The notes under the pieces are model-generated. The model saw only the letters and a list, made by a program, of their open reading frames with translations. It was not told where the DNA came from and ran no database searches. Positions 6,816 to 43,687 of a stretch of DNA of 64,000 bases are shown here, in pieces (within the stretch, counting starts at the first letter, position 1; the number at the start of each line of letters is the position of its first letter). Position numbers and translations under genes: made by a program. The stretch is from Escherichia coli (GTDB lineage: Bacteria > Pseudomonadota > Gammaproteobacteria > Enterobacterales > Enterobacteriaceae), in assembly GCF_024223415.1 (NCBI RefSeq), contig NZ_CP100500.1. The stretch is one strand, 5' to 3'.

Positions 6816-7430
6816 TCAGCCAGCAAGCGCCAGTGGCGCTTCCGGCCAGCTGATTTCAGGTGCCTTGCTGATATCCAGTGCGTTCAGATCGTCGATATAA
6901 TCCAGCACGGCATTCAGTTTTGCCGTTTCTTCTGGTGTCAGACTGCGACCTGCCCGCAACTTAAGGTTGATGAGGTCGATGGACTTCATCGCCTGATCCA
7001 CCCGTTCCTGGCGTTGCTGTCTGGCAACCTCCAGCTCTTCGGCTTGCTGCCGTTCTGTATCGGTTACCCACGCCTCACCGTTCCAGGTATCCCATGGTGT
7101 GGCAGGCTGTTTTGTCGTTGTCCCTTCCGGGTAGTCACCTGGTTGGGTAATCTGGACCGGATTACCGTTCTCTGTGCTGTATACCGTCTCTCCACGATGA
7201 TCGGGGACATACTCCCACCCGTCCAGCGTGGACGTCCGGCAAATCACGTAACCCGGCATTGCCTCTGGCGGGGCATCGGCGCATGAATGTGCCGGGGTAC
7301 CCACCCCCAGGGCCAGATACTCCACAGAGGATGAGGTGTATTCCCGGGTTTCCTCATCATAGTGATATACAGTGATATCGCCTGCGAAAGTGGCGATACC
7401 GTTTTCATCCAGAACTGCAGTGTTACTCAT
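6816..7430 (-). CDS. tail fibre assembly protein (Mu U-like)
   Basis: 204-aa tail fibre assembly protein sequence; start ATG overlaps the tail-fibre stop (TAATG). Confidence 0.8.
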   Translation of the reverse strand: MSNTAVLDENGIATFAGDITVYHYDEETREYTSSSVEYLALGVGTPAHSCADAPPEAMPGYVICRTSTLDGWEYVPDHRGETVYSTENGNPVQITQPGDYPEGTTTKQPATPWDTWNGEAWVTDTERQQAEELEVARQQRQERVDQAMKSIDLINLKLRAGRSLTPEETAKLNAVLDYIDDLNALDISKAPEISWPEAPLALAG

Positions 7431-9268: not shown

Positions 9269-9270
9269 AA

Positions 9271-9849
9271 TCAACTTCTCCCGTGGTTATAACTGCCATC
9301 ATGGATGGCGGTATTGTTATAGCGAATGGCCACAGACTGATACTCCAGGCTGGCCAGATGGCAGCGGGCCGGTGCAAATGCAGTGAGCGTCTGACGCAGC
9401 ATCGCGGCCTGATCGTTAGTAATGGGCTGTTTCAGAATAACGCGATAAACCGCCCAGCCTGCTGTATCTCCATGAACAAACAGTCCGTTATGGCTGCGAT
9501 TGCCGTCGTAACTGAGACGACCTGTGCCTTCAATCAGATCCACTTCACCAAAGCCAAAACGGCGGATAACTTCCCGGATTGACCACGGCGTCCCTTTATA
9601 CCGGTGCAGTTCGATGGCTGCTTTTATAAGCATGCGGCGAACATCGTCCGATTCCGCCAGCTCCCAGCCATCGCCAGACAGTGAGAACTGCTCGCCCAGC
9701 CATGGCAGCGCGGAACTGTCGACGATATCGACGAGAAAGACCATCAGTACGCTCAGGTCGATGTTATCCAGCCGTCCTGCCAGTCTTCCCAGCGTCCTGA
9801 GACTGATATCACCCTCAAGCGGTGGCGGGAGTTGTAATGGCTCAGTCAT
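9271..9849 (-). CDS. baseplate/tail protein (P2 gpI-like, Mu gp48-like)
   Basis: 192 aa; position between baseplate J and tail fibre. Confidence 0.75.
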   Translation of the reverse strand: MTEPLQLPPPLEGDISLRTLGRLAGRLDNIDLSVLMVFLVDIVDSSALPWLGEQFSLSGDGWELAESDDVRRMLIKAAIELHRYKGTPWSIREVIRRFGFGEVDLIEGTGRLSYDGNRSHNGLFVHGDTAGWAVYRVILKQPITNDQAAMLRQTLTAFAPARCHLASLEYQSVAIRYNNTAIHDGSYNHGRS

Positions 9850-13221: not shown

Positions 13222-14102
13222 ACACTCCTCGTCAGTATTCTGGCGGCCATTGCACTTAATCGCGGAGACATGCGGTTGAATGCTGTGCCGGCGGCGTTAA
13301 GCTGCCCGGAAACGGTATCCAGAGCACCTGCAATATTTCTTTTGTCCACACCACTCAGCGCAGACTGTGCCTGCTGTATATACGTGGCTGCTTCGCTGGC
13401 TGTTCTGGCCAGACTGATGGCATCGGGCATGGATTCAGAGAGTGCATTAAATGCCGGCACACTTTTCCCCAGAGCGCCGGATATATTACCCAGTCCGCTC
13501 ATCAGTCCCGGCACACGGGTCAGCGCGACAACGGGGTTATCCTTCATTTTCTGCGCCACCCGAACGGCACTGATGGTGGTCTGGAGTACAGACTGCGCCT
13601 GTTTCGCATAGTTGACACCGTTGCGGATGAACTGTGCCCCCCCGGAAGGCGATGGAACGGCACCAGATACGGCCCCGGCACCGGGAACCTGCCTGCGTAT
13701 TGCCGGTGGTTTCAGGGGATTCTTCGGGTCACCGGTGTATTCCCGGAGAGACACGGTTGCGCTGACAGCCAGTACGTTGCCGGTACTGTCAGTCTGCTCG
13801 CTGGTTGCAGTCACATCGGTAATCACGAACCAGGCGCGATAGTCACCGTTGCCGAAGACCAGCGCCAGTGCCTGATGGGCTTTCATGGCTGCCCGAAGTC
13901 TCGCCAGCTCCACGTCGGGCACACAATAATGCTGATGGAAGACCAGACTTATCTGGATTTCGTCCAGCCTGTCGCCGACGAACTGCAGACCGGGCTTACT
14001 CCCGATGCGGGCATGCTCCGCATAATCGACGCCAGACGTGGCCTCGAAGCCGTCCCAGTAGGTAATCAGCTCAAACTCAATATCACCCAGTACGGCAAAC
14101 AT
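13218..14102 (-). CDS. tail protein (P2 gpU-like / Mu N-like)
   Basis: 294 aa; immediately downstream of the tape measure gene. Confidence 0.65.
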   Translation of the reverse strand: MFAVLGDIEFELITYWDGFEATSGVDYAEHARIGSKPGLQFVGDRLDEIQISLVFHQHYCVPDVELARLRAAMKAHQALALVFGNGDYRAWFVITDVTATSEQTDSTGNVLAVSATVSLREYTGDPKNPLKPPAIRRQVPGAGAVSGAVPSPSGGAQFIRNGVNYAKQAQSVLQTTISAVRVAQKMKDNPVVALTRVPGLMSGLGNISGALGKSVPAFNALSESMPDAISLARTASEAATYIQQAQSALSGVDKRNIAGALDTVSGQLNAAGTAFNRMSPRLSAMAARILTRSV

Positions 14103-17100
14103 CAGCGGTACTCCTTACGTTGTTTCTGAGCCAGCAGACGCTCCAGCATTTTTTCCAGCTCATGCAGACTCATATTCAGGGCACCAGTCAGTCCTGCAGG
14201 CGCTGTGGTTTCCCTGCCATTGAGGAAAAACTGAGGATTAAAGCTGACCTGGATACCACCAGACGTTCCACCGCCGGTTGCAGCTGCACCACGGCCTGAA
14301 TATCCGGCAGCCAGGATTTCAGGCGAGGGGATACGGGGAATATCCGGTGCCATCTCATTTGCCAGACGTTGCCCTGGTAAAATCGATGCCCGGGTGGAGA
14401 GCGGAATAGCGGGCATGGAAGACAAACTATTGATTACGGCTCCGATCGCATTTTTAGCAGACGACATAAACCCATTGATATCGGGCAACGGCATACTGAA
14501 GCGAACACCTGAAGTGTTATCCCGTATTTCTGGCCCCTGAATGCTCACGGGCATTTTGGGGAGCAGTTCACTGGCCATTCGCTGCCCGGCCAGAGCTGCA
14601 AGCGGAGTAGTCCGCTGCAGGCCAATGGCGGCCCCCTGCGCGATATTGTCGCCAAAGACCATAAACACGCGGCTCGGCGAATGAATGCCCAGCTTTTCGC
14701 TGAACCAGCCACTGATGCTGTCACCCATTCCGGTTACACTGGATTTGAGCGACTCCCATTTGTTTTTGATACCGTTAATCAGACCATCGACAAGATGGCC
14801 ACCGAAGTCGGTAAACTTTGCCGGCAGATCAACACCAAGATATTTCATCGCAGCTGCAAAGGCTTTATAGAGCAGACCTGCCGGCGACCAGTTAATCAGC
14901 AACTTACCAGTTCCCACAATGCCGCCGTTAAAGGCTTCCTGAATGTCAGCCCAGCACTGTTTAAACCAGCTACTGATGCTGTCACCCATTCCGGTTACAC
15001 TGGATTTGAGCGACCCCCATTTGTTTTTGATACCGTTAATCAGACCGTCGACAAGATGGCCACCGAAGTCGGTGAACTTTGCCGGCAGAGCAACGCCGAA
15101 ATATTTCAGCGCAGCTGCAAAGGCTTTATAGAGCAGGCCTGCCGGCGACCAGTTAATCAGCAACTTACCAGTTCCCACAATGCCGCCGTTAAAGGCTTCC
15201 TGAATGTCAGCCCAGCACTGTTTAAACCAGCTACTGATGCTGTCACCCATTCCGGTTACACTGGATTTGAGCGACCCCCATTTGTTTTTGATACCGTTAA
15301 TCAGACCGTCGACAAGATGGCCACCGAAGTCGGTGAACTTTGCCGGCAGAGCAACGCCGAAATATTTCAGCGCAGCTGCAAAGGCTTTATAGAGCAGGCC
15401 TGCCGGCGACCAGTTAATCAGCAACTTACCAGTTCCCACAATGCCGCCGTTAAAGGCTTCCTGAATGTCAGCCCAGCACTGTTTAAACCAGCTACTGATG
15501 CTGTCACCCATTCCGGTTACACTGGATTTGAGCGACCCCCATTTGTTTTTGATACCGTTAATCAGACCGTCGATAAGATGGCCACCGAAGTCGGTGAACT
15601 TTGCCGGCAGAGCAACGCCGAAATATTTCAGCGCAGCTGCAAAGGCTTTATAGAGCAGACCTGCCGGCGACCAGTTAATCAGCAGCTTACCAGTTCCCGC
15701 GATACCGCCGTTAAAGGCTTCCTGAATGTCAGCCCAGCGCTGTTTAAACCAGCCACTGACTGCCCCCCAGTTGCGGTAGATAAGGTAAGCTGCTGCCGCG
15801 ACAGCGGTGATAACGAGACCGATGGGATTCATCATCAGCGCCCGGCCAATCCAGAGAACGGCACGCCCGGCGATCATAATGCCGCGAACCAGTCCCCCGG
15901 AGAGCACACCACCCAGTGTTCTGACTCCTCTGGCGACGGCACCAAAGCCGGTCACCAACCAGCGAAGCTTACCGCCTTCCCCCAGTGCAAGCGTCAGACG
16001 AAGCCAGTTGGTCCGGAGTAAAACAGCAGTTTTCCAGACGTTCACAAAGGGGGAAATAAGGAGATTCAGCCCCAGTTTGAGACCAATAGTCGCTATCTTA
16101 ATCGCAAGGAGCGCACTGATGAGCTTAAAAGCCCCACTGACAAATTGCGGGTGAGTCGCCACCCAGTGTTTTGCCCCCTGAATGACTGGGATCAGCTCCT
16201 GAGTCAGAGAAATAAAAGAAGGGGCGAGCTGATCGCCCAGCGTAATAGCCAGATCGCGACTGCTGACCATAAGCGCTTTAGTGGCTTCAAGGGGAGATTT
16301 CAGCCGCTGATCGTAAGCACTGGCAAGCAAATCGTTATCCGCAGCCCTGAGAGCACCGGCACGGATCTCGCGATATCTGTCCATGTTGGCCAGCATCGGG
16401 CGGATAAATGCCATGACCTGCATATCCGCGAACATATCGCCCAGACCAAAGTTTTTCGCCAGAGCCTGAAGTGCCTCATCTCTTGCCGTATCATTCTTTA
16501 TTTTCATGGCGGATTTGAAGCCGGCCAGCGCTTCGGGGCTTTTGGCATTGAGGTAACGTTCTATAACACTCAACATCCCTTCAATCGGAGAGATCCCCGC
16601 AGCCTTATAACTCGCAACAGAACCCTGCAAATCAATACCCAGATCAGCAAACTGTTTCTGAGTATCGCGGGCAAAAATTTTGGTAAGAAAGTTTTTAAAA
16701 TTATTGGCTGCTTCGTCGGTGGAGCCCGCACCGATTTTTGCTACCTGGAGACTGGCCCCGATTTCAGCAACAGCCTCTTTTCCACTGGCAATACCCGCCA
16801 TCATTGGGGCCAGGGACTGCATCCACTTGACCTGATCCGGGATTTCAAATGACCCCTGGTCACCGGCATAAGCCATAATATTCTGGACGGCACTAAAATC
16901 TCTGGCGGCACCTTTCAGGGAGTTTTGCCAGACTGCGGCCACTTTTGCCCAGTCCTGAGATGACGTGCGTGTTGCCGTTGCCGCGCGGGCAATATCCGGC
17001 ATCAGAAAACCGATATCTGACAAGTTATCAATATTGTCGCTGATGAGCGAACCCACCGCCTCCTGCAGTTCATCCTGATACTGATTGTATTTTAGCGCCC

Positions 17101-17575
17101 AGCCTTTTATCTGTCCGGCAAGTGCATCCCGCGTTTTATTGTCATATTTTGCGGTGATCGACATATCAATCATTTTGTCCTGAAAAGACATGGACTGCTG
17201 AACGGCAGGGGAAACCGTATGATAAACAGTCTGTGCCATGCCATACGCTTCAATCCCCTGACCATACAGCGCCATGCGGTTAGCTTTCAGCGCATCACTG
17301 GTGGCTGATGCCGCTGACAGACGGCGCTGCTGGCGCTCAATTTGCTCCATGGTGCGGCTTACCCGCAGCAGCTCGCTGTTGAGATGCTGCATCCGGGAAG
17401 AGCCCAGTTGACCATAACGTTCTGTTGCACGGGTTAAAGCGTTCTGACGTTCCTGCAGGCGGCGTGAGGTATCGCTCAGGGAATCAAGCGCACGGCGGGT
17501 ACCGCTCATTGCAGAACGGAATGTGCTGCCAATCATCCCGCCGATAACAACGCCGACTGAAAACTGTCCCGACAT
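14102..17575 (-). CDS. tail tape measure protein with five tandem 87-aa repeats
   Basis: About 1157 aa; coiled-coil N-terminus, hydrophobic core, repeated WFKQCWADIQEAFNGG... unit; start taken at ATG 17575 with GGAGG RBS (track ORF extends to 17635). Confidence 0.85.
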   Translation of the reverse strand: MSGQFSVGVVIGGMIGSTFRSAMSGTRRALDSLSDTSRRLQERQNALTRATERYGQLGSSRMQHLNSELLRVSRTMEQIERQQRRLSAASATSDALKANRMALYGQGIEAYGMAQTVYHTVSPAVQQSMSFQDKMIDMSITAKYDNKTRDALAGQIKGWALKYNQYQDELQEAVGSLISDNIDNLSDIGFLMPDIARAATATRTSSQDWAKVAAVWQNSLKGAARDFSAVQNIMAYAGDQGSFEIPDQVKWMQSLAPMMAGIASGKEAVAEIGASLQVAKIGAGSTDEAANNFKNFLTKIFARDTQKQFADLGIDLQGSVASYKAAGISPIEGMLSVIERYLNAKSPEALAGFKSAMKIKNDTARDEALQALAKNFGLGDMFADMQVMAFIRPMLANMDRYREIRAGALRAADNDLLASAYDQRLKSPLEATKALMVSSRDLAITLGDQLAPSFISLTQELIPVIQGAKHWVATHPQFVSGAFKLISALLAIKIATIGLKLGLNLLISPFVNVWKTAVLLRTNWLRLTLALGEGGKLRWLVTGFGAVARGVRTLGGVLSGGLVRGIMIAGRAVLWIGRALMMNPIGLVITAVAAAAYLIYRNWGAVSGWFKQRWADIQEAFNGGIAGTGKLLINWSPAGLLYKAFAAALKYFGVALPAKFTDFGGHLIDGLINGIKNKWGSLKSSVTGMGDSISSWFKQCWADIQEAFNGGIVGTGKLLINWSPAGLLYKAFAAALKYFGVALPAKFTDFGGHLVDGLINGIKNKWGSLKSSVTGMGDSISSWFKQCWADIQEAFNGGIVGTGKLLINWSPAGLLYKAFAAALKYFGVALPAKFTDFGGHLVDGLINGIKNKWGSLKSSVTGMGDSISSWFKQCWADIQEAFNGGIVGTGKLLINWSPAGLLYKAFAAAMKYLGVDLPAKFTDFGGHLVDGLINGIKNKWESLKSSVTGMGDSISGWFSEKLGIHSPSRVFMVFGDNIAQGAAIGLQRTTPLAALAGQRMASELLPKMPVSIQGPEIRDNTSGVRFSMPLPDINGFMSSAKNAIGAVINSLSSMPAIPLSTRASILPGQRLANEMAPDIPRIPSPEILAAGYSGRGAAATGGGTSGGIQVSFNPQFFLNGRETTAPAGLTGALNMSLHELEKMLERLLAQKQRKEYR
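14640..15750 (-). repeat. in-frame tandem repeat, 261-bp unit, about 4.5 copies
   Basis: Antisense ORFs at 14685, 14943, 15204 and 15465 are near-identical; sense strand repeats an 87-aa unit. Confidence 0.7.
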
Positions 17576-17650
17576 AGTGGTTAACCTCCGGGGAAGGTGA
17601 AAAGACGTGAGGGGATAACGCAGAACAGCCGCCACTGGCGGCTGTCTGTA

Positions 17651-30826: not shown

Positions 30827-31177
30827 TTAAAGCCCCATCGCAACAGCCAGACAGACAGCTGCAACAATCAGTGCACGGCGGATTAACGCAGCAGAAAAAA
30901 CCAGGTGAAGGCCGGTCTGTACGGGCCAGCGCCCCTCAGCCATGAGGCGCTCGTCATGCTTCAGGTACTGCCCCGGACGGGCCTTCGGGAAGAGTGAGCG
31001 GTCCAGCCAGTAGCCGAGCACGGCGGCGAGGGAGATGAGAGAGAGCTTGTACACCACCACCGGCAACTGCTGGGGCGAGACCAGCGCGATGATGAGGAGT
31101 AGCAGCACGGCCGCAACAAGCCATCCACGCAGGCGGGTTTTTTGTACGTCAGCGATAAGGGAAGTGAATGGTTTCAT
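30827..31177 (-). CDS. holin-like membrane protein, first gene of the leftward late operon
   Basis: 116 aa with 2-3 predicted TM helices directly upstream of the endolysin. Confidence 0.55.
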   Translation of the reverse strand: MKPFTSLIADVQKTRLRGWLVAAVLLLLIIALVSPQQLPVVVYKLSLISLAAVLGYWLDRSLFPKARPGQYLKHDERLMAEGRWPVQTGLHLVFSAALIRRALIVAAVCLAVAMGL

Positions 31178-31308
31178 GAAAATGTCTCCTTGTTGTGTGG
31201 AGACAGCATGGCAAAAGCGTGGCGCGGAGGATTTTAAAGCGCGTTAAGAGAGAGGCGTGTTCGGGGTATGCAGAATACACGCTGGATCACTCACAAAGGA
31301 GATACAGA

Positions 31309-31857
31309 ATGACAGTCACACCGAAGCCGACCATCACCGTCAGAGTGTCCGGGCCTGTGGGCAGCGGTAAAAGTTACGTTCTGACGCGTATAAAAGAGAT
31401 GGTGAAAAAGGAATTTGGAAAAAGCGTCATTGTCGATGCCGCAGTTGTGGACGACGAGCGTATCTGTCGGACGAATGAGCTGCTTCAGGAGCAACTCATG
31501 AAGGTGTTACGCAAACTCACCGGTCAGACAACAAAATGTTTTTCAGCCCCGGAGTACGGGATACAGGAACACATCCCGGTGAACATGCCCCCCGTTAACC
31601 AGCCTCCCCGGTTCTTCGACGAATACATTCTGACACCGGAAAATAAAGCTGAGCATGAAGAGATCAAAGCGGCGTTGTTCCGGGAAATCAGGAAGATTGC
31701 TGAAATGCAGCTGGAGGGCGGGCTGGACAGAGTGATGGCGAGAGGAGAATGGGAATCGCTGTTTGAAAGAGTTTCCCCGGAATTGCTTCCCCTCGCACTG
31801 GCTATCGGGATTATGCAGACAGCGGATAAACCTCACTTACGTTCATTAAACACGTAA
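31309..31857 (+). CDS. small P-loop NTPase/kinase-like protein, unknown function
   Basis: Walker A GPVGSGKS at residues 14-21, hhhhDD-type VIVDAAVVDDE; AAGGAG RBS 7 nt before ATG; opposite strand to the flanking late genes. Confidence 0.6.
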   Translation: MTVTPKPTITVRVSGPVGSGKSYVLTRIKEMVKKEFGKSVIVDAAVVDDERICRTNELLQEQLMKVLRKLTGQTTKCFSAPEYGIQEHIPVNMPPVNQPPRFFDEYILTPENKAEHEEIKAALFREIRKIAEMQLEGGLDRVMARGEWESLFERVSPELLPLALAIGIMQTADKPHLRSLNT

Positions 31858-32237
31858 CGCATAATCCGGGATACGCATTCAGCGATGACTGCATTTTCAC
31901 CGGTTTTTACTGCATCCAGAAGTGACTCTTTAAATGGTACGGGCCGGGGCTGCAGAAAGGTCGGCATGGCATTGAGCAGACAGAGCGTTTTTTCCGTGAG
32001 GACGACATCAGCCGCTCCCACAGCCAGCAACTGAGAGTAACGAATATAGCTGTTATCCCGAAGCCATATCAGCGTATCAATAAAATACCGGCACTTTTTC
32101 TGATCGTGATCAACCTGGTCCGGGATATCGAAAAAACCAGAATAAATCAAAACCTGAGGAGCCGGATGCGTGTTCAGTAATCGGCAGAATATTTTGCCGG
32201 TGAGTACATAAAAATCATCATTTAAGGAGTGCATCAT
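31833..32237 (-). CDS. hypothetical protein (134 aa)
   Basis: ORF convergent with the P-loop gene (25-nt 3' overlap) and divergent from the next gene; weak RBS; coding status uncertain. Confidence 0.4.
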   Translation of the reverse strand: MMHSLNDDFYVLTGKIFCRLLNTHPAPQVLIYSGFFDIPDQVDHDQKKCRYFIDTLIWLRDNSYIRYSQLLAVGAADVVLTEKTLCLLNAMPTFLQPRPVPFKESLLDAVKTGENAVIAECVSRIMRYVFNERK

Positions 32238-32451
32238 GAATCCCCGATTAACGTTAACAGAACATCAGCGCCGTGCCGAAGCAGTGAACAATGTTCTGGA
32301 AGATATTATCCGGTTACATCGCGGAGAACTGAGTGTCTGTCGTGCCACTGTTCATTTTCAGGAAATACAAAAGCAGTTTGATACTTCTGTTTTTGCAGAA
32401 GGGATCACTTATGCCCTGGACCAGATAAGGTCAGAAAATCGCCCCGGATAA
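32236..32451 (+). CDS. small hypothetical protein (71 aa)
   Basis: AAGGAG RBS 6 nt upstream of ATG; start overlaps the start of the divergent ORF by 2 nt. Confidence 0.5.
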   Translation: MNPRLTLTEHQRRAEAVNNVLEDIIRLHRGELSVCRATVHFQEIQKQFDTSVFAEGITYALDQIRSENRPG

Positions 32452-32643
32452 TCCCTAAACCACATTAACAGAAATCACTTCATCCCTGCCGCATCATGAA
32501 AGAACGACCAGCCCGGTGCTTCGGACCCACCAGGCTGGCCATCGTCCCACAGGAATGCGCTGTGAGCCGACCGGGGTTCAGTCAGTCTCGCGAGACCAGA
32601 CTAGCCTGCCATATTTTTAATAATTGTAAAAGGCTTACAGATT

Positions 32644-33408
32644 ATGAAAATGCAGACATTACCCATCGTTCCATGGATTGGTGGCAAACGTCGCCTGGCA
32701 AAACACATCCTGCCGCTGTTTCCGGCGCATGAATGTTACGTGGAGCCGTTCTGCGGCGCAGCAGCGCTCTATTTTCTTAAGACACCTGGTAAGCTCGAAG
32801 TCATTAACGATATCAATGGTGAACTGGTAAATCTGTATCGGGTGGTAAAACATCATCTGGAAGAATTTGTCCGCCAGTTCAAATGGGCGCTGGTCAGCCG
32901 GCAGATCTACAAATGGCTGCAGATCACCCCGACAGAAACACTGACGGATATCCAGCGTGCAGCACGGTTCTACTACCTCCAGAAGCAGGCGTTTGGCGGC
33001 AAGGTGGCAGAGCACAGCTTCGGCACCTCCACCACATCCCCGCCACGCTTCAACCTGCTGCGTATCGAGGAAGAACTGTCAGCGGCACACCTGCGGCTTT
33101 CCAGAACGGTGATAGAACACATGGACTGGCAACAGTGCATTGAGCGCTATGACCGTCCGCACACGCTGTTCTACTGTGACCCGCCGTATCTGGGTACAGA
33201 AGGCTATGGTGTGGATTTTCCTGAAGGGAACTACTCGCGGCTGGCAGAGCTGGCCCGGTGCATCAGAGGAAAGATGATAATTTCGGTGAACGACATCCCG
33301 CAGATGCGCGAGGTGTTCACTGGACTGAACATACAGACAGTGAACATCAACTACAGTCTGGCAGGCAAATCAACTCCACGCCGTGAGCTGGTGATCTGCA
33401 ATTTCTAA
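32644..33408 (+). CDS. DNA N6-adenine methyltransferase (Dam-like)
   Basis: Motifs FCGAAALYF and DPPY; 254 aa; no partner nuclease gene adjacent. Confidence 0.85.
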   Translation: MKMQTLPIVPWIGGKRRLAKHILPLFPAHECYVEPFCGAAALYFLKTPGKLEVINDINGELVNLYRVVKHHLEEFVRQFKWALVSRQIYKWLQITPTETLTDIQRAARFYYLQKQAFGGKVAEHSFGTSTTSPPRFNLLRIEEELSAAHLRLSRTVIEHMDWQQCIERYDRPHTLFYCDPPYLGTEGYGVDFPEGNYSRLAELARCIRGKMIISVNDIPQMREVFTGLNIQTVNINYSLAGKSTPRRELVICNF

Positions 33409-33526
33409 AAGCCATAACCGGAAAGTACAGTGCTTTCCGGTAAGCCCGCCGATTTCTGCCATGCTACTGACGGCGTTTTCTGAAAGCATCCAGATCAACC
33501 ACCTGTCCTTTCTGTCCAGGTCAGAA

Positions 33527-33865
33527 TCAGCCTGCGAGTTTGCCTGGTTTGGGTTGAATGAAGACTTTGCCGACCTCAAGAATTGCCCTCCGTTGTTCGG
33601 GGCTCATCTCGTCGAATGCATCCATTAACTCTTTCTTTTCTTGTGACATATAAGGTGCAACAACAGGCTGACTCCGCACCCCAGTAACTACATACAAAAC
33701 ATCTACACCGATTTCTGATAGTGCAGATAACTGCACTGCAGTAGGAGAAGTGCGATCTTTTTCCCAATCAATAAAAGTTCTCTTTGCCACACCGATAGCA
33801 TCAGCCAACCCTTGCTGTGTAAGAGATAGACGCTCTCTTTCTTCTTTAATACGTAACCCGATCAT
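33527..33865 (-). CDS. XRE-family HTH regulator, prophage repressor candidate (c-like)
   Basis: Cro/CI-type HTH (LTQQGLADAIGVAKRTFIDWEKDR); divergent from the early operon; start set at ATG 33865 so it does not overlap the Ner-like gene. Confidence 0.65.
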   Translation of the reverse strand: MIGLRIKEERERLSLTQQGLADAIGVAKRTFIDWEKDRTSPTAVQLSALSEIGVDVLYVVTGVRSQPVVAPYMSQEKKELMDAFDEMSPEQRRAILEVGKVFIQPKPGKLAG

Positions 33866-34525: not shown

Positions 34526-35443
34526 ATGGGACGCACCAAATCACCGGTTAACACTGAACTGAACGCCGAGGTACCGCTGTCGGATGATCTCAACGTCAGC
34601 CTGAATGCCATGACACAGCATCGCATGGAGATCATGCAGCAGTTTGGTGATGGACTGCCTTATGAACGTGATCGCATCGTTCACGAAGCACGTTTTTATA
34701 TGGCGCAGAGTGCTGAATCTATGCTGGAAGCGGGTAAACGGCTGATCATCTTAAAAGAAAATGAGCCACACGGGGACTTTGTTGGAATTGTAGAAGAACA
34801 ACTTGGTTTGCACGTGCGCGCAGCACAACGAATGATGAAAGCATCTTTGAAATACCTTTCACCAAAACTAGAGCCAAAAGCGACAACGTTGTCGCTTTTG
34901 GGTAAGGCAAAATTATTTGAACTTGTTGCTGAAGACGATGAAGACCTTGCCGAACTGGCCGACGGCGGCACAGTTGCCGGCCTGACGCTTGATGATGTTG
35001 ATCGCATGTCAGTACGTGAACTTCGCCAGGCCCTGCGTGAAGCGCGCGAAACTAACGCAGCTCAGCAACAGGTGCTTGCCGGAAAGGACGAAAAAATCAA
35101 CGAACTGGCCACAAAACTGGAGAAGAAATCCCGTATTCAACCGCCTGAGCCTGATGAAGAGGTGAAGAAGCTGCGGGCGGAAGTGACCGCATTAGCGGTT
35201 GAGGCGGAATCTGCCATCGCCGTCCGGCTCTCCGGTGCCTTTGAAACCCTGTGTGAATACTGCAGTAAAAACATGATTGATACCCCCAGAGATTTCATGG
35301 CCGGTCTGGTCTGCCAGATTGAACGCAGTGTTCATGCATTGCGTGAGACGTTCGACCTTGATGCCGCACCATCGGGTAACGATGCCCCCGCCTGGCTGAC
35401 CGAACCGGAGCCTGAAATCAACCGACCGGAGGGCATGCAGTAA
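34526..35443 (+). CDS. hypothetical early protein (305 aa)
   Basis: ORF in the early operon; acidic coiled-coil regions. Confidence 0.55.
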   Translation: MGRTKSPVNTELNAEVPLSDDLNVSLNAMTQHRMEIMQQFGDGLPYERDRIVHEARFYMAQSAESMLEAGKRLIILKENEPHGDFVGIVEEQLGLHVRAAQRMMKASLKYLSPKLEPKATTLSLLGKAKLFELVAEDDEDLAELADGGTVAGLTLDDVDRMSVRELRQALREARETNAAQQQVLAGKDEKINELATKLEKKSRIQPPEPDEEVKKLRAEVTALAVEAESAIAVRLSGAFETLCEYCSKNMIDTPRDFMAGLVCQIERSVHALRETFDLDAAPSGNDAPAWLTEPEPEINRPEGMQ

Positions 35444-35760
35444 TGAACACGGATAACACACAAAATATCCTGATGGACAGCCCGGAAGCACTGGGGCACG
35501 CACTGTGTAATCTGCTGCCGGAGATGGTGCAGGGTTTCCGCGTGGTGACACCTTCCGGTGAAATCTGCGTACCCGCACAGGAGGCGCATCCGTTTGTACT
35601 GACGATGGAAGTGATGCTGATGCAGCAGATAAGACGTCTGCAGCATCAGTCAGCATTGCGCCCGGCAGTTGCGCCGCAACCGGTAAATAACGTGGTGAAA
35701 ACCTGCGATGGCGAAACACTGTACGACCTCGCCAGAAAAATTGCCGCCAGAATCGGATAA
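35443..35760 (+). CDS. hypothetical early protein (105 aa)
   Basis: ATGA stop-start overlap with the upstream gene. Confidence 0.5.
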   Translation: MNTDNTQNILMDSPEALGHALCNLLPEMVQGFRVVTPSGEICVPAQEAHPFVLTMEVMLMQQIRRLQHQSALRPAVAPQPVNNVVKTCDGETLYDLARKIAARIG

Positions 35761-35775
35761 CAGGGAAGACAAGCT

Positions 35776-37545
35776 ATGACCCCGGCACTGACTGAAAAAC
35801 TTGTTGAAACAGCCCGCGCGGCACGTAATGCAGGGCATGGTAAACGCGGTGCAATATACGACGCTGCCTGTGCTGAACTTGGCATGTCCCGCGCCACTCT
35901 GCTGCGCAGGCTGAAGGAGGTCTCTGTGACTGATAAACGCAAAAAACGCGCCGATGCCGGACGCAGCACCCTGACCCGCGACGAAGCCGCGCTGATATCT
36001 GCCACACTACGTGAGGCCACCCGCAAGAACGGTAAGCGTCTCTATTCCATCGCGGATGCAGTGGAAACCCTGCGGGCTAACGGCTTTATCTCCGCAGGCA
36101 GAACAGATGAAACCACCGGTGAGTTTTTCCCGTTGTCCGAAGATGCCATCAGTCGTGCCCTGCGTAACTATGGCCTGCACCCGGAACAACTGGATGCCCC
36201 TGCACCGCATACCGAAGTGGCCAGTCTGCACCCCAATCATGTCTGGCAGATTGACGCCTCACTCTGCACGCTTTACTACCTGAGCAATGGACATAAAGGG
36301 CTGCAGGTGATGGACAGCGCGAAATTCTACAAGAACAAGCCCGCTAACCTTGCCCGTATCGCCAGTGACCGCGTGTGGAGTTACGAGATTACCGACCATG
36401 CCAGCGGCTGGATTTACGTTGAGTATGTGACGGGTGCGGAATCCGGTGAGAACCTGTGTTCTGTGCTTATCAACGCCATGCAGGAGCGTGGCGGCGCAGA
36501 CGTGCTGCACGGCGTGCCAAAAATACTCTATCTCGACCCCGGCTCGGCAAACACCGCGGGTATGACGAAAAACATGTGCCGCTCACTGGGCATCGACCTG
36601 ATAGCGCACAAGCCGCATAACGCCCGCGCCACCGGACAGGTGGAAAAGGCGCGTGACATTATCGAACGCAAGCTGGAGCCGGGTCTGAAGTTCCGGCCGG
36701 TTCACAGTCTGGAAGAACTCAACGCGCTGGCCGCGAAATGGCGCAGCCACTTTAACGCCACGGCTGTTCACAGCCGCCACGGTAAAACCCGCACGGATAT
36801 CTGGCTGAAGATTACTGCTGAGCAGCTGAAAAAAGCGCCTTCCGTTGAGGTATGTCGTGAACTGGCTGTGGCGGCACCAGAACTCCGCAAAGTCACGCCA
36901 AAACTTCGTGTCTCGTTCCGGGGCACTGAATTTGACGTATCAACGGTACCGGGCGTACTGGTCGGTGAAAAACTGATGATTACCCGTAACCCGTGGCGCA
37001 GCGATGTGGCACAGGTGGTTCTGACCGGTGAGGACGGCCACGAGACGTTCTTCCTGGTCGAAGAGGTCAGAAAGAACGAGTTTGGCTTTGCTGAAGGCGC
37101 GGCGGTATTTGGCGAAAGTTACAAAGCCCTGCCGGAAACCCCGGCGCAGATGGCGGCAAAAGAAACCGAAGCGCTGGTCACCGGTACAGACAACGCCGCA
37201 GATGCAGCTGCCGCACGCAAGGCGAAGGCGCTGCCGTTCGGCGGGCGGCTTGACCCGTATAAACATATTGATGACGCCACACTTCCGGCCTGTATACCGA
37301 AGCGTGGTCAGGCCTCTGACGTACGCGGACCGCGCACTGAACAGCGTCCCATGACTCATGTGGAGGCCGCGAAAGCCCTGCGCGGGAAGTTTAGCGCAAA
37401 CGGCCTGACCTGGACGCCGGAACATTACCGCCAGTTAACGGCACAGTACCCGGACGGCGTACCGGAAGCCGCACTGGATGAAGTCATGGCCACGCTGACC
37501 ACGCCGGCCCGCAGCAGCGTTATCAGCATTGTTAACGGCAACTGA
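35776..37545 (+). CDS. DDE transposase (Mu A-like)
   Basis: 589 aa; N-terminal HTH, integrase-core-like region (HVWQIDASL...), followed by the B-like ATPase. Confidence 0.85.
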   Translation: MTPALTEKLVETARAARNAGHGKRGAIYDAACAELGMSRATLLRRLKEVSVTDKRKKRADAGRSTLTRDEAALISATLREATRKNGKRLYSIADAVETLRANGFISAGRTDETTGEFFPLSEDAISRALRNYGLHPEQLDAPAPHTEVASLHPNHVWQIDASLCTLYYLSNGHKGLQVMDSAKFYKNKPANLARIASDRVWSYEITDHASGWIYVEYVTGAESGENLCSVLINAMQERGGADVLHGVPKILYLDPGSANTAGMTKNMCRSLGIDLIAHKPHNARATGQVEKARDIIERKLEPGLKFRPVHSLEELNALAAKWRSHFNATAVHSRHGKTRTDIWLKITAEQLKKAPSVEVCRELAVAAPELRKVTPKLRVSFRGTEFDVSTVPGVLVGEKLMITRNPWRSDVAQVVLTGEDGHETFFLVEEVRKNEFGFAEGAAVFGESYKALPETPAQMAAKETEALVTGTDNAADAAAARKAKALPFGGRLDPYKHIDDATLPACIPKRGQASDVRGPRTEQRPMTHVEAAKALRGKFSANGLTWTPEHYRQLTAQYPDGVPEAALDEVMATLTTPARSSVISIVNGN

Positions 37546-37555
37546 GGAGGGAAAC

Positions 37556-38722
37556 ATGCTGGTACTGAAGCAGCAACTGAAAGAGGCCCGTATTCCACAG
37601 GCGGTGGCGGCGAGAGCTGTCGATGTTTCTGAGGCCACGCTGGCCCAGATTGTGAATCATAACGCGTGGCCCCGCACCAGCCCCGGAGAAGTGCGCCGGC
37701 GTCTTGCGTCCTGGCTGGAAAGTCAGGGGATTGATACAACGAAGAGTTTTGATGCTGTACAGGGCGCGGCCACGCCCCGTACAGCGAGTACCACAGATAA
37801 AACGAGCCTCAGTGAGGAAGAGAATATGTTACTCAAAAAACAGGTGTTATTTCCAGCAACCAAAAAAGCGTTTGGTCTTTTCCGTGACCCGTTCGCCGAC
37901 GAAGCCATGCAGGGTTCTGATGATGTGTTCACCACCCCGGACATTCGCTACGTGCGTGAGGCGCTGTACCAGACAGCCCGTCATGGTGGGTTTATGGCCG
38001 TCATCGGTGAGTCCGGTGCGGGTAAATCCACGCTGCGCCGCGACCTGACTGAACGTATTAACCGCGAGAATGCGCCGGTAATTGTTATCGAGCCATACAT
38101 CATTGCCATGGAAGACAACGATGTGAAAGGGAAAACCCTGAAGGCTGCAGCGATTGCCGAAGCCATTATCAGTACCATCGCACCACTGGAAAGCATCAGA
38201 CGCAGTCAGGACGCCCGCTTTCGCCAGTTGCATCGCGTCCTGAAAGGCAGCAGCCAGGCGGGGTTCAGCCACGTTCTGGTGATTGAGGAGGCCCACAGTC
38301 TGCCCATTCCGACACTGAAACACCTCAAACGCTTTTTTGAGCTGGAGTCCGGTTTCAAAAAACTGCTGTCCATCGTGCTGATTGGCCAGCCGGAACTGGC
38401 GACAAAACTGTCTGAACGCAATATGGAAGTCCGTGAAGTCGTTCAGCGCTGTGAGGTGGTCGAACTTCTGCCTCTGGACAATAACCTTGAAGAATTTCTG
38501 ACGTTCAAACTGCAACGGGCCGGTAAACAACTGACGGACATTATGGACGCCAGCGCAGTGGATGCCATACGTGCCCGCCTGAGCAATCCGGGAAGTCATC
38601 GTAAAAATATGGTCAGCCTGCTGTATCCGCTGGCCGTCAGTAACCTGGTAATAGCCGCCATGAATCTGGCCGCTGAAATCGGGGTTCCACAGGTCAACGC
38701 TGACGTTGTCAAAGGAGTTTAA
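37556..38722 (+). CDS. transposition ATPase (Mu B-like, AAA+)
   Basis: Walker A GESGAGKST, Walker B HVLVIEEAH; GAGGAGG RBS before ATG 37556. Confidence 0.85.
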   Translation: MLVLKQQLKEARIPQAVAARAVDVSEATLAQIVNHNAWPRTSPGEVRRRLASWLESQGIDTTKSFDAVQGAATPRTASTTDKTSLSEEENMLLKKQVLFPATKKAFGLFRDPFADEAMQGSDDVFTTPDIRYVREALYQTARHGGFMAVIGESGAGKSTLRRDLTERINRENAPVIVIEPYIIAMEDNDVKGKTLKAAAIAEAIISTIAPLESIRRSQDARFRQLHRVLKGSSQAGFSHVLVIEEAHSLPIPTLKHLKRFFELESGFKKLLSIVLIGQPELATKLSERNMEVREVVQRCEVVELLPLDNNLEEFLTFKLQRAGKQLTDIMDASAVDAIRARLSNPGSHRKNMVSLLYPLAVSNLVIAAMNLAAEIGVPQVNADVVKGV

Positions 38723-38724
38723 TA

Positions 38725-38994
38725 ATGAAATCCACCACAGGTATCAACCAGCAAATCAGCAAAGTGCAGTCAGCCATTATGGCGCTTAAGGCGACGAACA
38801 CGGATGTACAAAGCATCACCATCAGGGGTAACAAACCTGTCATCCGCGTTTCCCGGAGTGCGCATTGCATGCGCATGCTTGAGCAGGGAAAGGCCTGTTA
38901 TCTGTATACCGGACATGACCACAGGGGATATTTCCGTCAGGGCGTTTTCGAACTGCACGGCTGTCGCGTCGTGTGGCCGGAATCTTTGTGGTAA
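38725..38994 (+). CDS. hypothetical early protein (kil-position)
   Basis: 89-aa ORF between B and gam. Confidence 0.5.
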   Translation: MKSTTGINQQISKVQSAIMALKATNTDVQSITIRGNKPVIRVSRSAHCMRMLEQGKACYLYTGHDHRGYFRQGVFELHGCRVVWPESLW

Positions 38995-39021
38995 TCAGCA
39001 CAACCGGAGAAATCATAAAAT

Positions 39022-39552
39022 ATGGCAAAAAGTACAAAAGGGGCAAAACGTATCAAGGCCGCAGCGGCACTCTGGGTACCAGGGACACGCGAAGAGGTCA
39101 TTGAGGGAATCAGACTACTCGGTGACGCACAACGTGAACTGGTCAGGGCTGAAACAGAAATGAATGACGCCATTGGCGATATCACCGCACGTTATGCCCC
39201 GCTCACCGAGAGCCTGAAAAAACGCATGGCCGAACTGCAGTCCGGTATTCAGACATGGTGTGAGGCACACCGTGATGAACTGACCGGCAACGGGAAGGTG
39301 AAGTTCGCTAACCTCACCACCGGCGAGGTGCAGTGGCGAAACCGTCCGCCATCAGTCAGTATCCGTGGGGCGGATAATGTTATTGAATTACTGAGACGTC
39401 TGGGGCTTGAGCGCTTTATTCGTGTAAAAGAGGAAATAAATAAAGACGCTATCCTGAATGAAAAAGAGGCCGTGAAAAATATTCCCGGTATTTCCATTAA
39501 AAGCGACATTGAGGATTTTTCAATAATTCCTTTTGAGCAGGATGTGCAGTAA
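39022..39552 (+). CDS. gam: host-nuclease inhibitor Gam
   Basis: Closely parallels Mu Gam along its length (..SIRG.D.V.E.L.RLGL.RFIR.K.EINK.AIL.. and C-terminal IEDFSIIPFEQ). Confidence 0.85.
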   Translation: MAKSTKGAKRIKAAAALWVPGTREEVIEGIRLLGDAQRELVRAETEMNDAIGDITARYAPLTESLKKRMAELQSGIQTWCEAHRDELTGNGKVKFANLTTGEVQWRNRPPSVSIRGADNVIELLRRLGLERFIRVKEEINKDAILNEKEAVKNIPGISIKSDIEDFSIIPFEQDVQ

Positions 39553-39649
39553 ACACACCACGTTAATTATTTAATAAAAACATTTTCTTTTTTATTCCGG
39601 CGTCAGCGCCGCGGGCTTCTGCACGCCGGAAACAGAGGAGAATTAAATC

Positions 39650-39844
39650 ATGATATTTAAATGTATTCAGTGCGAGAGGGATATAACAGCCCTGCGTTTT
39701 CACAGCGCCATCGCCGTGATGTCCGGTAAATACCACATCCCTGCGGTACGCGTCACCCTGGTCTGTCCGTACTGCAGCCAGCATTTTTCGGCAGACGTGC
39801 CCGTCATGGAATTCTCCCGCCCTGACAGGGAGGACGCGCAATGA
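39650..39844 (+). CDS. Com-like zinc-finger protein candidate
   Basis: CxxC...CxxC (CIQC..CPYC) in 64 aa; stop overlaps the start of the next ORF (ATGA). Confidence 0.5.
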   Translation: MIFKCIQCERDITALRFHSAIAVMSGKYHIPAVRVTLVCPYCSQHFSADVPVMEFSRPDREDAQ

Positions 39845-40113
39845 TTACCCCACAGGAAGCACGACAGCGCACCCGAACCCTTGTTGAACACTATGTCAAC
39901 GAGTGTGAATGTCGCGACCTCACCGATGTGAAGCACGTCCTGACGGCGCTAATCAGCATGGCCACACAGGCCATTGTGGCAACCAACGGAAAGGCGGCTG
40001 CCCTGCAGGTACTGATGAACACACTCACCCACACGGCAGAGCATGAGGTGCCGTACCGGATGGAAACCACTGCAGAAGGCGGCCTGCACATCACCGTCAG
40101 CCGGAAGCACTGA
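39841..40113 (+). CDS. hypothetical protein (90 aa)
   Basis: Translationally coupled to the Com-like ORF. Confidence 0.5.
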   Translation: MITPQEARQRTRTLVEHYVNECECRDLTDVKHVLTALISMATQAIVATNGKAAALQVLMNTLTHTAEHEVPYRMETTAEGGLHITVSRKH

Positions 40114-40122
40114 GGGTGCGGC

Positions 40123-40419
40123 ATGACACGAAACACCGAACTCACCCGCACCGCCCTCTACCGTCTGGCCCTGCAGCGTTTCGGGCCGGATGCACAGGCC
40201 CTGAAACTGACAGAAGAGGCCGCTGAACTGGCGGCCAGTGCTGCCCGCAACCTGAACGGACAGGGCAGCGAAAGTGACCTCGCGGCAGAGCTGGCAGACG
40301 TGGAAATCATGACAGAGCAACTGCGCCTTCAGGGGATGGACCGGCTGATTGACTTCCACAAACAGAAAAAACTGGAACGTCTGGCTGCACGACTGGGCGT
40401 GATTTACACGAACGAGTAA
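40123..40419 (+). CDS. MazG-like nucleotide pyrophosphohydrolase candidate
   Basis: EExxE ... ExxD acidic motif pattern (EEAAELAAS ... AAELADVE) in a 98-aa all-alpha protein. Confidence 0.5.
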   Translation: MTRNTELTRTALYRLALQRFGPDAQALKLTEEAAELAASAARNLNGQGSESDLAAELADVEIMTEQLRLQGMDRLIDFHKQKKLERLAARLGVIYTNE

Positions 40420-40645
40420 CCGGGAGGCATTCAATGGCTGACATACTCAGGGAAATCACCGCATGGACACTGATTCTTACTGGTCTGGCGACATGCCTCA
40501 GTGCGGGAGCAGCCCTGGCTGCCCTGCTGATGCACATAACAACACAGTGGTTATGAGAAAAGCTTAAAGCAGCATACAGCCTGAAAGAGCTGTCCGACGC
40601 TGTCCGGGCATGGAAACGGCAGAAAAATACCGGAGATACAGAACA

Positions 40646-41329
40646 ATGACAGACCAGAATAAACACATTGAGAAACTGAAAAAGTTGCTGGCGCTGGCCG
40701 CATCCGGCAACCCGCATGAGGCTGCTCTGGCACTGCGCCGCGCCCGTAAACTGATGGATGTTCACGGCATCACACATTCCGACATCGCCATGAGTGATAT
40801 TGATGAAACCATCAGTCACTACTGGCCGACAGGCAGCCTCCGTCCGCCGCGCTACATGCCAGGGCTGATGAACATCATCCGCGAGGCATTTGGTGTTAAC
40901 TCCATCATTCACCCCGGCACATATCCGGGTGTGGGGTTCTACGGCAAACGGGAACGGGCCGCACTGGCCGCGTACACCTGGGAAGTGCTGGCCCGTCAGC
41001 TGAAAAAGGCGCGTCAGCAGTATATCAGTGCACAGAACAAAAGAATAAAAACCGCCACCCGCACCAGCCGTGGAGACCAGTTTGCTGAAGGCTGGGTGCT
41101 GGCCGTTATCAGTGAAATACAGTCCTTCGCCCTGACCAATGACGAACGTGAACTGATGCAGCAGTGGCTGGAACATAAATACCCGCAGACGCAAACCACC
41201 AGGGCGCGTAAACCGGGAAGAAGTCGCAATGGCGACGCCTCGCGCTATGCGGGGTTTCGAGAAGGGCAGAACGTCAGACTGCACCGACCGGTCAGTGGGC
41301 GGGAACAGCAGAAACTGGAGGCCAGATGA
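40646..41329 (+). CDS. hypothetical early protein with conserved N-terminal helical domain
   Basis: Start at ATG 40646; N-terminal IEKLKKLLALAASGNPHEAALALRRARKLM. Confidence 0.55.
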   Translation: MTDQNKHIEKLKKLLALAASGNPHEAALALRRARKLMDVHGITHSDIAMSDIDETISHYWPTGSLRPPRYMPGLMNIIREAFGVNSIIHPGTYPGVGFYGKRERAALAAYTWEVLARQLKKARQQYISAQNKRIKTATRTSRGDQFAEGWVLAVISEIQSFALTNDERELMQQWLEHKYPQTQTTRARKPGRSRNGDASRYAGFREGQNVRLHRPVSGREQQKLEAR

Positions 41330-41556
41330 TGACGTTATCAGGTAACAGCCGGAAATTAAAAGCCTGCCGAATATCTGCCAGATACCTTTTTGCCCGCGCC
41401 TTTTTTAAGAACGTCAGGCCGGGGATCACAATTGGTGTTATTGCCGGACGCGAACAGGTTGAAAAATACATGTCAGGTGCATGGTGGAATAAAGACCCTG
41501 TCATTGCTGCCCGTAATATTCATATCAGTTGGGGAGATATTCAGAATGACTGCTGA
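41326..41556 (+). CDS. hypothetical small protein
   Basis: 76-aa ORF; weak support. Confidence 0.35.
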   Translation: MMTLSGNSRKLKACRISARYLFARAFFKNVRPGITIGVIAGREQVEKYMSGAWWNKDPVIAARNIHISWGDIQNDC

Positions 41557-43599: not shown

Positions 43600-43681
43600 C
43601 TGTTCACCAGAACCCATGTTAACCCACTCCAATTCGTTATTTATCTCACGGATCCCCCTTCATTTATCTCATGTCTGATCA
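43600..43681. repeat. prophage end distal to gin, with transposase-binding-type motifs
   Basis: Reverse complement reads TGATCAGACATGAGATAAATG...GTGAGATAAATA, mirroring the other end (TGAT, 9 nt, GATAAATG, 15 nt, GATAAAT). Confidence 0.55.
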
Positions 43682-43687
43682 GGTGCG
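43682..43687. repeat. target-site duplication, right copy (GGTGCG)
   Basis: Matches 6057-6062. Confidence 0.6.

Follow-up and report, generated by a model that had tools for sequence, protein, structure and literature searches.

A covarying leader RNA with the signature of a translational switch precedes an orphan Dam-family methylase gene in BcepMu-like prophages of enterobacteria

In the transposable phage Mu, the late DNA-modification gene mom carries a stem in its mRNA that masks the translation start, and Com opens this stem. A second point of reference is the Dam family of methyltransferases, in which E. coli Dam (EcoDam), T4 Dam and DpnM (M1.DpnII) are GATC-specific and have solved structures. 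Closer homologs of the gene discussed here are carried by the phages phiE125, KS9, VP882, PhiKM and KP12; the phiE125 protein, gp27, has reportedly been seen to produce N6-methyladenine. The non-specific alpha-class adenine methyltransferases Hia5, Hin1523 and Nma1821 of Mu-like prophages have been proposed to be substitutes for Mom in prophages of the FluMu type (PMC3299994). Here, we analyzed a stretch of 64,000 nucleotides from Escherichia coli (contig NZ_CP100500.1; the whole stretch is called the window below), in which a prophage carries a Dam-family methylase gene at 32644-33408 (+ strand) and, directly in front of it, a conserved structured leader RNA at 32496-32643 (+), the "dam leader," which ends at the start codon of the gene.

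The enzyme is real but ordinary: prophages commonly carry orphan Dam-family methylases, and an annotation of this gene already exists. The interest of the locus lies in its leader, an uncatalogued, broadly distributed element with two predicted states, which is the most informative feature here and was not remarked in the first-pass annotation of this DNA. We consider that the locus is best explained as a late, translationally gated stand-alone methylase of enterobacterial BcepMu-like phages that would mark phage DNA before packaging, and we put the probability of this reading at roughly 0.55.

The spacer between the methylase gene and the open reading frame (ORF) of 71 codons preceding it is 192 bp long, about 150 nt of which belong to the leader. 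The nucleotide identity to relatives is 87% in the leader (32496 to the ATG), 79% in the coding sequence, and 59% in the DNA further upstream, and the differences within the leader are concentrated in hairpin loops. A profile of the leader segment matches upstream of the VP882 gene (3e-10) and also upstream of homologs with 62-77% protein identity. The covariance model R1, which was built for the leader and run on the loci of homologous genes, found a match directly upstream, on the coding strand, of 77 of the 84 genes. Its scores were 144.5 bits in the window (32496-32647, the sole match there), 86.7 bits in VP882, 49.7 bits in phiE125, and 41.2 bits in KS9, and it gave no match in BcepMu or SuMu. 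The same leader stands directly upstream of the homologs phiE125 gp27, KS9 gp25 (locus tag gp45), VP882 gp37, and those of PhiKM and KP12, which belong to phages of different kinds: lambda-like siphoviruses, a linear-plasmid hapunavirus, and BcepMu-like myoviruses.

The leader is a previously uncatalogued RNA element that is absent from Rfam 15. A known RNA family was rejected, as the search of Rfam 15 returned no relevant match to the leader of the window at E ≤ 10, only a chance microRNA match, and nothing at E ≤ 1 in the loci of phiE125, VP882 and KS9. A coding function was also rejected: the 78-codon ORF at 32496-32732 starts with ATG, GTG, TTG, AAG or GAG in relatives, and the indels in its loops are not multiples of three. 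A link to the small RNA VpdS of VP882 was not supported, VpdS being about 50 nt long and trans-acting.

The structure supported by covariation comprises three hairpins and one long-range helix, all on the + strand. Helix H1 (32508-32538) has arms at 32508-32518 and 32528-32538 around a variable loop, and shows compensatory changes in 10 of its 11 pairs among 76 distinct sequences, against 4 of the 11 in the close enterobacterial set. Helix H2 (32548-32564) pairs CACAG (32548-32552) with CUGUG (32560-32564) and is taken to be the "ON" hairpin; in an alignment whose model had left H2 out, 95% of its cells are paired and 50 cells are compensatory. The 3' arm of H2 is common to the sequestering helix, P_long, whose 5' strand CUGUGAGCC (32560-32568) pairs with the 3' strand GGCUUACAG (32632-32640) in the putative "OFF" state. 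This 3' strand covers the GG of the Shine-Dalgarno sequence AAAAGG and reaches position -4 of the AUG. Helix H3 (32574-32607), with outer, middle and inner stems around the palindrome GUCUCGCGAGAC, was delineated by covariation and by comparison with VP882. Because the leader is too invariant within the close lineage, H3 could be tested with distant homologs only; among the 76 distinct sequences, compensatory changes occur in all 4 pairs of the inner stem, all 3 of the middle stem, and 4 of the 5 of the outer stem. Scanning the genome collection without the H3 constraint gave nearly the same loci.

Taken over the whole leader, 26 of 32 pairs show compensatory changes in the model-aligned set of 76 distinct sequences. 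In this set, 85.5% of the cells are paired, against 69% after shuffling and at most 43% when the pairing partners are slid, and the covariation score is 0.418, against 0.177 and at most 0.078, respectively. An alignment of 23 diverse sequences made with MAFFT only shows compensatory changes in 19-21 pairs, with 88% of the cells paired, compared with 75% for shuffled and 29-46% for slid partners.

H2 and P_long are mutually exclusive, because both use the same CUGUG nucleotides, and the covariation at this point is a three-way one that takes in the 5' arm of H2, the shared strand, and the Shine-Dalgarno strand. Where the shared strand varies from CUGUG to CUGCG or CUGCA, or to CAGUG, both of its partners change along with it: the 5' arm of H2 goes from CACAG to CGCAG or CACUG, and the Shine-Dalgarno strand from UUACAG to UUGCAU or UUGCAA, or to UUUACUA. 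The two conformers, when forced on the window sequence, come to -46.4 and -44.9 kcal/mol; they are only 1.5 kcal/mol apart and thus nearly iso-energetic. The element is a covarying structure at a fixed site upstream of one gene family, as is characteristic of a cis-regulatory mRNA leader, and its alternative pairing includes the ribosome-binding site, as is characteristic of an expression platform. Since H2 and the helix pairing with the Shine-Dalgarno strand share one strand and covary three ways, we suggest that the leader bears the signature of a bistable translational switch over the ribosome-binding site.

It could also be supposed that the upstream element is a feature of the DNA or of the minus strand, such as a set of protein-binding sites or a leftward terminator keeping read-through from the repressor gene out of the lysis genes. 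H1 provides the grounds for this idea: in the close enterobacterial set it has just 2 G.U cells but 24 C.A cells, and the latter would be G.U if the minus strand were read; the invariant UCGUUCUUUCA follows it on the minus strand; and a terminator scan flags the H1 site on that strand. However, H3 and P_long each depend on about 70 G.U pairs of the + strand, cells that would read C.A on the opposite strand. Moreover, the motif is invariably found on the coding strand, immediately in front of the methylase, even in phages whose gene orders differ considerably, and the three-way covariation takes in the Shine-Dalgarno strand. We therefore regard a purely DNA-level or minus-strand element as quite unlikely. 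The view of H1 purely as a leftward terminator was reduced to this minor alternative, because the helix forms part of the motif even where the phage genes are ordered differently, but H1 may serve both roles and possibly terminates leftward repressor transcripts before the lysis genes.

The gene behind the leader (32644-33408, ATG start) encodes 254 amino acids. Its start is supported by the fact that ATGAAA and the upstream AAAAGG are kept across 43 distinct relatives. The product matches Pfam PF02086 (MethyltransfD12) with 101.3 bits (E 9.6e-29; curated cut-off 22 bits), residues 11-234 lying on positions 1-248 of the 253 in the profile, and scores 116.8 bits on the NCBIfam "Dam family" model TIGR00571, above the cut-off of 114.85. 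The order of its motifs is that of the alpha class: the FxGxG-like motif I for S-adenosylmethionine (AdoMet), EPFCGAAAL at residues 34-42 (motif I site 32743-32763), then the target-recognition region, and then the catalytic DPPY at residues 179-182 (codons 33178-33189). Across 78 family representatives with 36-63% identity, whose alignment was also fed to the AlphaFold model, G13, K15, G38, D56, E158, D170 and D179-P-P-Y182 are invariant (78/78), and H29, E52, R86, R151 and E158 are the signature residues of the enzyme's own subfamily.

The AlphaFold (AF2) model is confident, with a predicted local distance difference test score (pLDDT) of 93.8 and a predicted template modeling score (pTM) of 0.91. 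Foldseek aligned it with a template modeling (TM) score of 0.81-0.82 to EcoDam, 0.80 to PDB 7m6b, 0.79 to DpnM, and about 0.70 to T4 Dam. By sequence, the closest solved structures are DpnM (6.5e-17) and EcoDam (3.5e-14), and the family profile run against PDB sequences retrieves DpnM (6.8e-38), 7m6b ("Mcbe1"; 4.8e-37) and EcoDam (1.1e-32). Considering the profile matches, the invariant motifs and the confident EcoDam-like fold, the methylase gene looks intact and its product apparently active, presumably with adenine-N6 chemistry. Thus, the claim of the first-pass annotation that 32644-33408 encodes a full-length methyltransferase with a DPPY motif is borne out. The family has thousands of members, and the 2.3-kb methylase region occurs in 634 of 5,426 complete E. 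coli genomes; RefSeq labels the product "DNA adenine methylase." Over the full length, the protein is 64-98% identical to the homologs in phiE125, KS9, VP882, PhiKM and KP12. Also within the wider family, five giant proteins of 1,056-1,635 amino acids (P0123, P0139, P0142, P0152 and P0176) contain 3 or 4 tandem copies of this methyltransferase domain, 29-34% identical to the enzyme described here, and are multi-methylase fusions.

With EcoDam, T4 Dam and DpnM the enzyme shares the family, the fold, the alpha order of motifs, DPPY, the FxGxG-type AdoMet motif and an N-terminal W-x-G-G-K; however, it is only 22-25% identical to them, and the residues of their GATC-reading beta-hairpin are not conserved. 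The residues K9, L122, R124 and P134 of EcoDam, which Horton and colleagues reportedly showed in 2006 to read the GATC base pairs, align to P10, K120, A122 and S132 of the methylase in a sequence alignment only, and family-wide these four columns hold P/G/S, K/R, V/D/gap and S/R/G. The hairpin signature of EcoDam, NG-x-R-x-N-x-x-G-x-FNVP (NLRGEFNVP), is absent throughout the family, which has F-G-G-K/R...F-G instead. On the EcoDam equivalog model NF008152, the enzyme reaches 67.2 bits, far below the cut-off of 441. Because the equivalog model fails and the GATC-contact residues are not conserved, a GATC target should not be assumed. The description of the enzyme as Dam-like in the first-pass annotation is therefore apt for its family and fold and not for GATC specificity.

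The composition of the prophage points weakly in the same direction. It contains 104 GATC sites, against 184.5 expected, and a tract free of GATC extends over 6,424 bp (35000-41424; 18.9 sites expected), covering the transposase, B, gam and the following early genes; the first kilobase of the early operon, just before this tract, has 8 sites. In 31 relatives taken together, GATC sites number 172 in the early regions, where 581 are expected (observed/expected 0.30), and 407 in the late regions, where 1,013 are expected (0.40). No depletion is seen in BcepMu, whose host is a Burkholderia (122 sites against 127). This pattern is the one expected if the GATC sites of the phage are not reliably self-protected, and it hints at a non-GATC target, since reliable self-methylation would lessen the pressure to lose sites.

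These data bear on the simplest alternative, that the enzyme is a plain GATC-specific Dam isoenzyme topping up the GATC methylation of fast-replicating phage DNA. Such an enzyme would guard against MutH or DpnII-type cleavage, or serve Dam-dependent phage regulation, and would add no new motif in a Dam+ host. Membership of the Dam family, the EcoDam-like fold, and the Dam-like annotations in PHROG and RefSeq speak for it, and most characterized D12-class enzymes read GAT-containing sites. On the other hand, the absence of the EcoDam contact residues and hairpin signature together with the low equivalog score argues, indirectly, against GATC reading, as does the strong GATC depletion of a lineage to which BcepMu gives the contrast. 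We hold the isoenzyme to be possible, at clearly less than even odds.

The late timing in the preferred reading, that of a gated late methylase, derives from the DNA in front of the leader. The lysis, head and tail operons of the prophage each start behind the motif yTAA-N5-wTTAA-N18-CAwrCT. In its relaxed form, yTAA-N5-wTTAA-N22-24-CAnnmT, the motif has 5 matches in the 64-kb window against 0.1 expected, at 31247(-), 24048(-), 18138(-), 31234(+) and 32455(+); three of these mark the lysis, head and tail operon starts, one is the lysis dyad read in the other direction, towards a nucleoside triphosphatase (NTPase) gene, and one is the site that leads into the leader. The last is the late-promoter-like element CTAA-N5-ATTAA-N22-CATCAT (32455-32497, +), for which a transcription start is predicted near 32503. 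In six relatives, KP12 and PhiKM among them, the motif is again found in front of the leader, and it also precedes the holin gene of BcepMu, a phage left out when the motif was defined; in the relative L013, where the holin and methylase genes diverge, a single dyad is present between the two. We suggest the motif as a candidate for the promoter and binding site of the Mor-family late activator. Considering this motif and the position of the homologs in the late operons of phiE125, KS9 and VP882, we infer that the methylase is transcribed late in lytic growth, in a Mor-dependent manner, from near 32503.

In phiE125 (gp27) and KS9, the lysis cassette is immediately followed by the homolog; in VP882 (gp37), the homolog comes after the tail genes. 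In each case it is oriented in the direction of late transcription and continues the late operon. In the window, by contrast, the methylase gene points away from the lysis genes and runs convergently towards a repressor-like gene of the helix-turn-helix (HTH) family HTH_3 (33527-33865, -, by the PGAP start; the longer ORF reaches 34018). Between the converging genes, a hairpin with a U-run (33417-33441, -) is a likely terminator of leftward repressor transcription, and the terminator scan found no clear + strand terminator after the methylase. Since the only evident terminator there is the leftward one, it is possible, although speculative, that methylase transcription runs on convergently into the repressor gene.

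This arrangement would suit a different function, in which the methylase is an epigenetic regulator made from the prophage in lysogenic conversion and alters the expression of the host or the prophage, including the adjacent lysogeny switch. The gene adjoins and converges on the repressor gene, and its transcripts, with no + strand terminator evident, would run antisense into it. Yet the motif upstream is of the late-promoter type, the homologs in unrelated phages, whose switches are built differently, are located at the ends of late operons, and a leader that sequesters the Shine-Dalgarno sequence argues for restricted expression, so that we think such a regulator unlikely. The placement next to the lysogeny switch, which the first-pass annotation had considered notable, probably does not reflect a link to that switch: the late-promoter motif is present here, and the idea that proximity to the repressor matters is weakened because the homologs in unrelated phages sit after lysis or tail genes. 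In one E. coli methylome study (PMC4659465), two prophage methylases were reported to be transcriptionally silent in the lysogen; neither could be matched to this gene.

The prophage is a BcepMu-like transposable one, and its methylase gene is 98% identical to that of Escherichia phage PhiKM (genus Bcepmuvirus). It extends from about 6700 to 43682, where the homology to a prophage at another chromosomal site stops and transposase-type terminal repeats sit. Repeats of the TTATCTCAC type (transposase-binding sites) are found at both prophage ends, at 43600-43682 on the right and as GTGAGATAA on the left. The structural genes and the lysis cassette (holin gene 30827-31177) are on the minus strand. 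Rightward, the holin gene is followed by three ORFs (31309-32451, orientation +/-/+), the methylase gene (+), the repressor-like HTH gene (-), and the rightward early operon, consisting of an IclR-type HTH gene, a DUF3102 gene, and the genes for a DDE transposase, an ExeA-type B protein, Gam, GemA and Mor, the Mor-family gene being at about 42.2 kb.

The methylase keeps this slot and orientation in Klebsiella KP12 and in Salmonella, Citrobacter and Yersinia/Enterobacter prophages. The DNA between the holin gene and the methylase varies among the relatives, holding a DUF2441 gene, other small ORFs, or nothing, and in L013 only 250 bp separate the two genes; BcepMu has three unrelated genes at this slot and no methylase. 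The gene is thus a fixed one of the enterobacterial BcepMu-like lineage, located between the holin gene and the immunity region, with variable neighbors to its left. It is therefore not part of the accessory module beside which the first-pass annotation had placed it. The variable block in the window consists of a P-loop NTPase gene (31309-31857, +), an ORF of 134 amino acids (31833-32237, -) and the ORF of 71 amino acids (32236-32451, +). Their PHROG families have no function assigned in PHROG. Searches of these three neighbors with Pfam, NCBIfam, PADLOC and PDB sequences gave no nuclease or defense match, within the reach of profile detection, beyond which novel nucleases could be missed. 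No constant partner gene stands beside the methylase across the compared relatives, and no adjacent nuclease is annotated next to the homologs in phiE125, KS9, VP882, PhiKM and KP12, as is the case here. Because a constant partner is missing across the relatives and the neighbors carry no nuclease signature, the methylase is an orphan, in agreement with the first-pass annotation.

It follows that the methylase is most improbable as the modification half of a restriction or defense system formed with the neighboring P-loop NTPase and small ORFs. In favor of such a system, restriction enzymes vary widely and frequently escape annotation, and the NTPase has faint PADLOC matches (SngB 6e-4, HerA 2e-3), but the neighbors are missing or replaced in relatives that retain the methylase and the leader, no nuclease signature was seen (Pfam, NCBIfam, PDB sequences), and PADLOC assigned the methylase to generic MTase models only.

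Some further features of these prophages were noted. The start codons of the 134-aa ORF (PHROG 2266, E 2.6e-44) and the 71-aa ORF (PHROG 4490) overlap back-to-back (CATCATG at 32235-32238), and this overlap leaves no intergenic room for a promoter of either gene; PGAP annotates the 134-aa ORF in some strains only. The Yersinia/Enterobacter-type prophage in CP199846.1 (L016) is a transposition-defective deletion derivative. Its DUF3102-family gene is a truncated one of 243 aa, after which DUF3164, GemA and Mor come at once, with no transposase or B gene; the methylase and its leader are retained. In the window, the tape-measure gene (14102-17635) has a near-perfect tandem repeat of 261 bp x 4.0 at 14703-15759, and its product has 1,177 amino acids against 983 in strain LH10-b-1. 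The tail-fiber gene (7430-9274) has a near-perfect tandem repeat of 300 bp x 3.3 at 8061-9037. A gene of the recombinase/invertase family at about 6150-6560 (-) adjoins the tail-fiber and tail-fiber-assembly genes and is a possible Gin-like host-range switch.

According to the reading that we prefer, transcription of the methylase would take place late in the lytic cycle, from the type of promoter used by the lysis, head and tail operons. In the OFF fold of the leader, CUGUGAGCC would pair with GGCUUACAG and the Shine-Dalgarno region would be buried, and in the ON fold CUGUG would pair with the upstream CACAG in H2 and leave the ribosome site free. Too much of the enzyme is probably harmful, and the switch would limit or time its translation. 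In a kinetic variant of this mechanism, H2 would form first and P_long later; only young transcripts would then be translated, because in them H2 would have formed before P_long. The enzyme would methylate the replicated phage DNA before packaging, most plausibly shielding it from restriction in the next host.

A number of points weigh against this proposal. The model-fitted alignment, on which the larger covariation counts were obtained, is biased towards the modeled helices, and the distal pairs of P_long are gapped or unpaired in many distant members. The single-sequence fold of the leader is no better than that of shuffled sequences (z -1.09), for which reason the case for the leader rests on comparison across sequences. 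The relaxed promoter motif was partly defined on the methylase site itself, and the -10 of the methylase element, CATCAT, departs from the late consensus. As for the anti-restriction role, it is assumed by analogy with what orphan methylases of phages do in general. For the trigger of the switch there are candidates only, namely the folding order of the nascent RNA, the binding of a protein (possibly the enzyme itself), or a metabolite. The substrate base and the target are also affected, since 7m6b, a D12-class protein with DPPY, matches the family profile as well as DpnM does. We take 7m6b to be M.CbeI of Caldicellulosiruptor bescii, an alpha-class N4-cytosine enzyme; if so, this DPPY-bearing branch of the D12 class need not be specific for adenine or GATC. 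The methylase resembles 7m6b in its D12-class fold, DPPY, the absence of the Dam hairpin signature, and the segments RFY-L...F-G/S-G and DPPY...YG, but the identity is about 22% and the organism is of a different type.

A more far-reaching version of the proposal is that the leader is a sensing RNA of a new class, namely a riboswitch (perhaps for S-adenosylmethionine or S-adenosylhomocysteine) or an autoregulatory operator bound by the methyltransferase, which travels with one phage methyltransferase subfamily across phages of Enterobacteriaceae, Vibrio and Burkholderia. The enzyme would in this case have a non-GATC or relaxed specificity and provide the anti-restriction modification of Mom-less transposable phages. 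We offer this version very tentatively and rather doubt it.

In outline, the gated late methylase is comparable to Mu mom/com, as both concern a DNA-modifying gene of a transposable phage that is apparently controlled by the late activator and has its ribosome site within an RNA helix. Unlike Mom, which is of the acetamido-transferase type and unrelated to methyltransferases, the enzyme is a methylase, its gene is not at the mom position, and its leader is far larger, with three hairpins and a bistable design. A Com-like regulator upstream was considered and rejected: the 71-aa ORF encodes a single Cys, has no Pfam match, and is absent in relatives. The Hia5/Hin1523/Nma1821 enzymes are likewise D12-related, reside in Mu-like prophages, and have DPPY and a divergent target-recognition region. 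However, membership of the Hia5/Hin1523 group was rejected, because BLASTP against the com-linked SuMu gp53 gave a best E value of 0.023 over 47 residues and nothing beyond the motifs. In addition, the locus described here differs from theirs in that no com-like zinc-finger ORF lies upstream and that the slot is between the lysis cassette and the repressor gene, not at the mom position at the right end.

The subfamily without the GATC-reading residues is widespread, occurring in more than 600 complete E. coli genomes and in many phages of Salmonella, Citrobacter, Klebsiella, Vibrio and Burkholderia. Because these residues of Dam are missing, the label "Dam" or the prediction of a GATC target by homology is unsafe for its members. 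If the enzyme is made only in lytic growth, methylome studies of lysogens may miss it. The leader, for which comparison gives unusually clear backing to a two-state switch, three-way covariation included, offers a directly testable model of how a potentially toxic DNA-modifying enzyme might be restrained without a Com-like protein. It may also be a further member of the small group of phage cis-regulatory RNAs of unknown effector.

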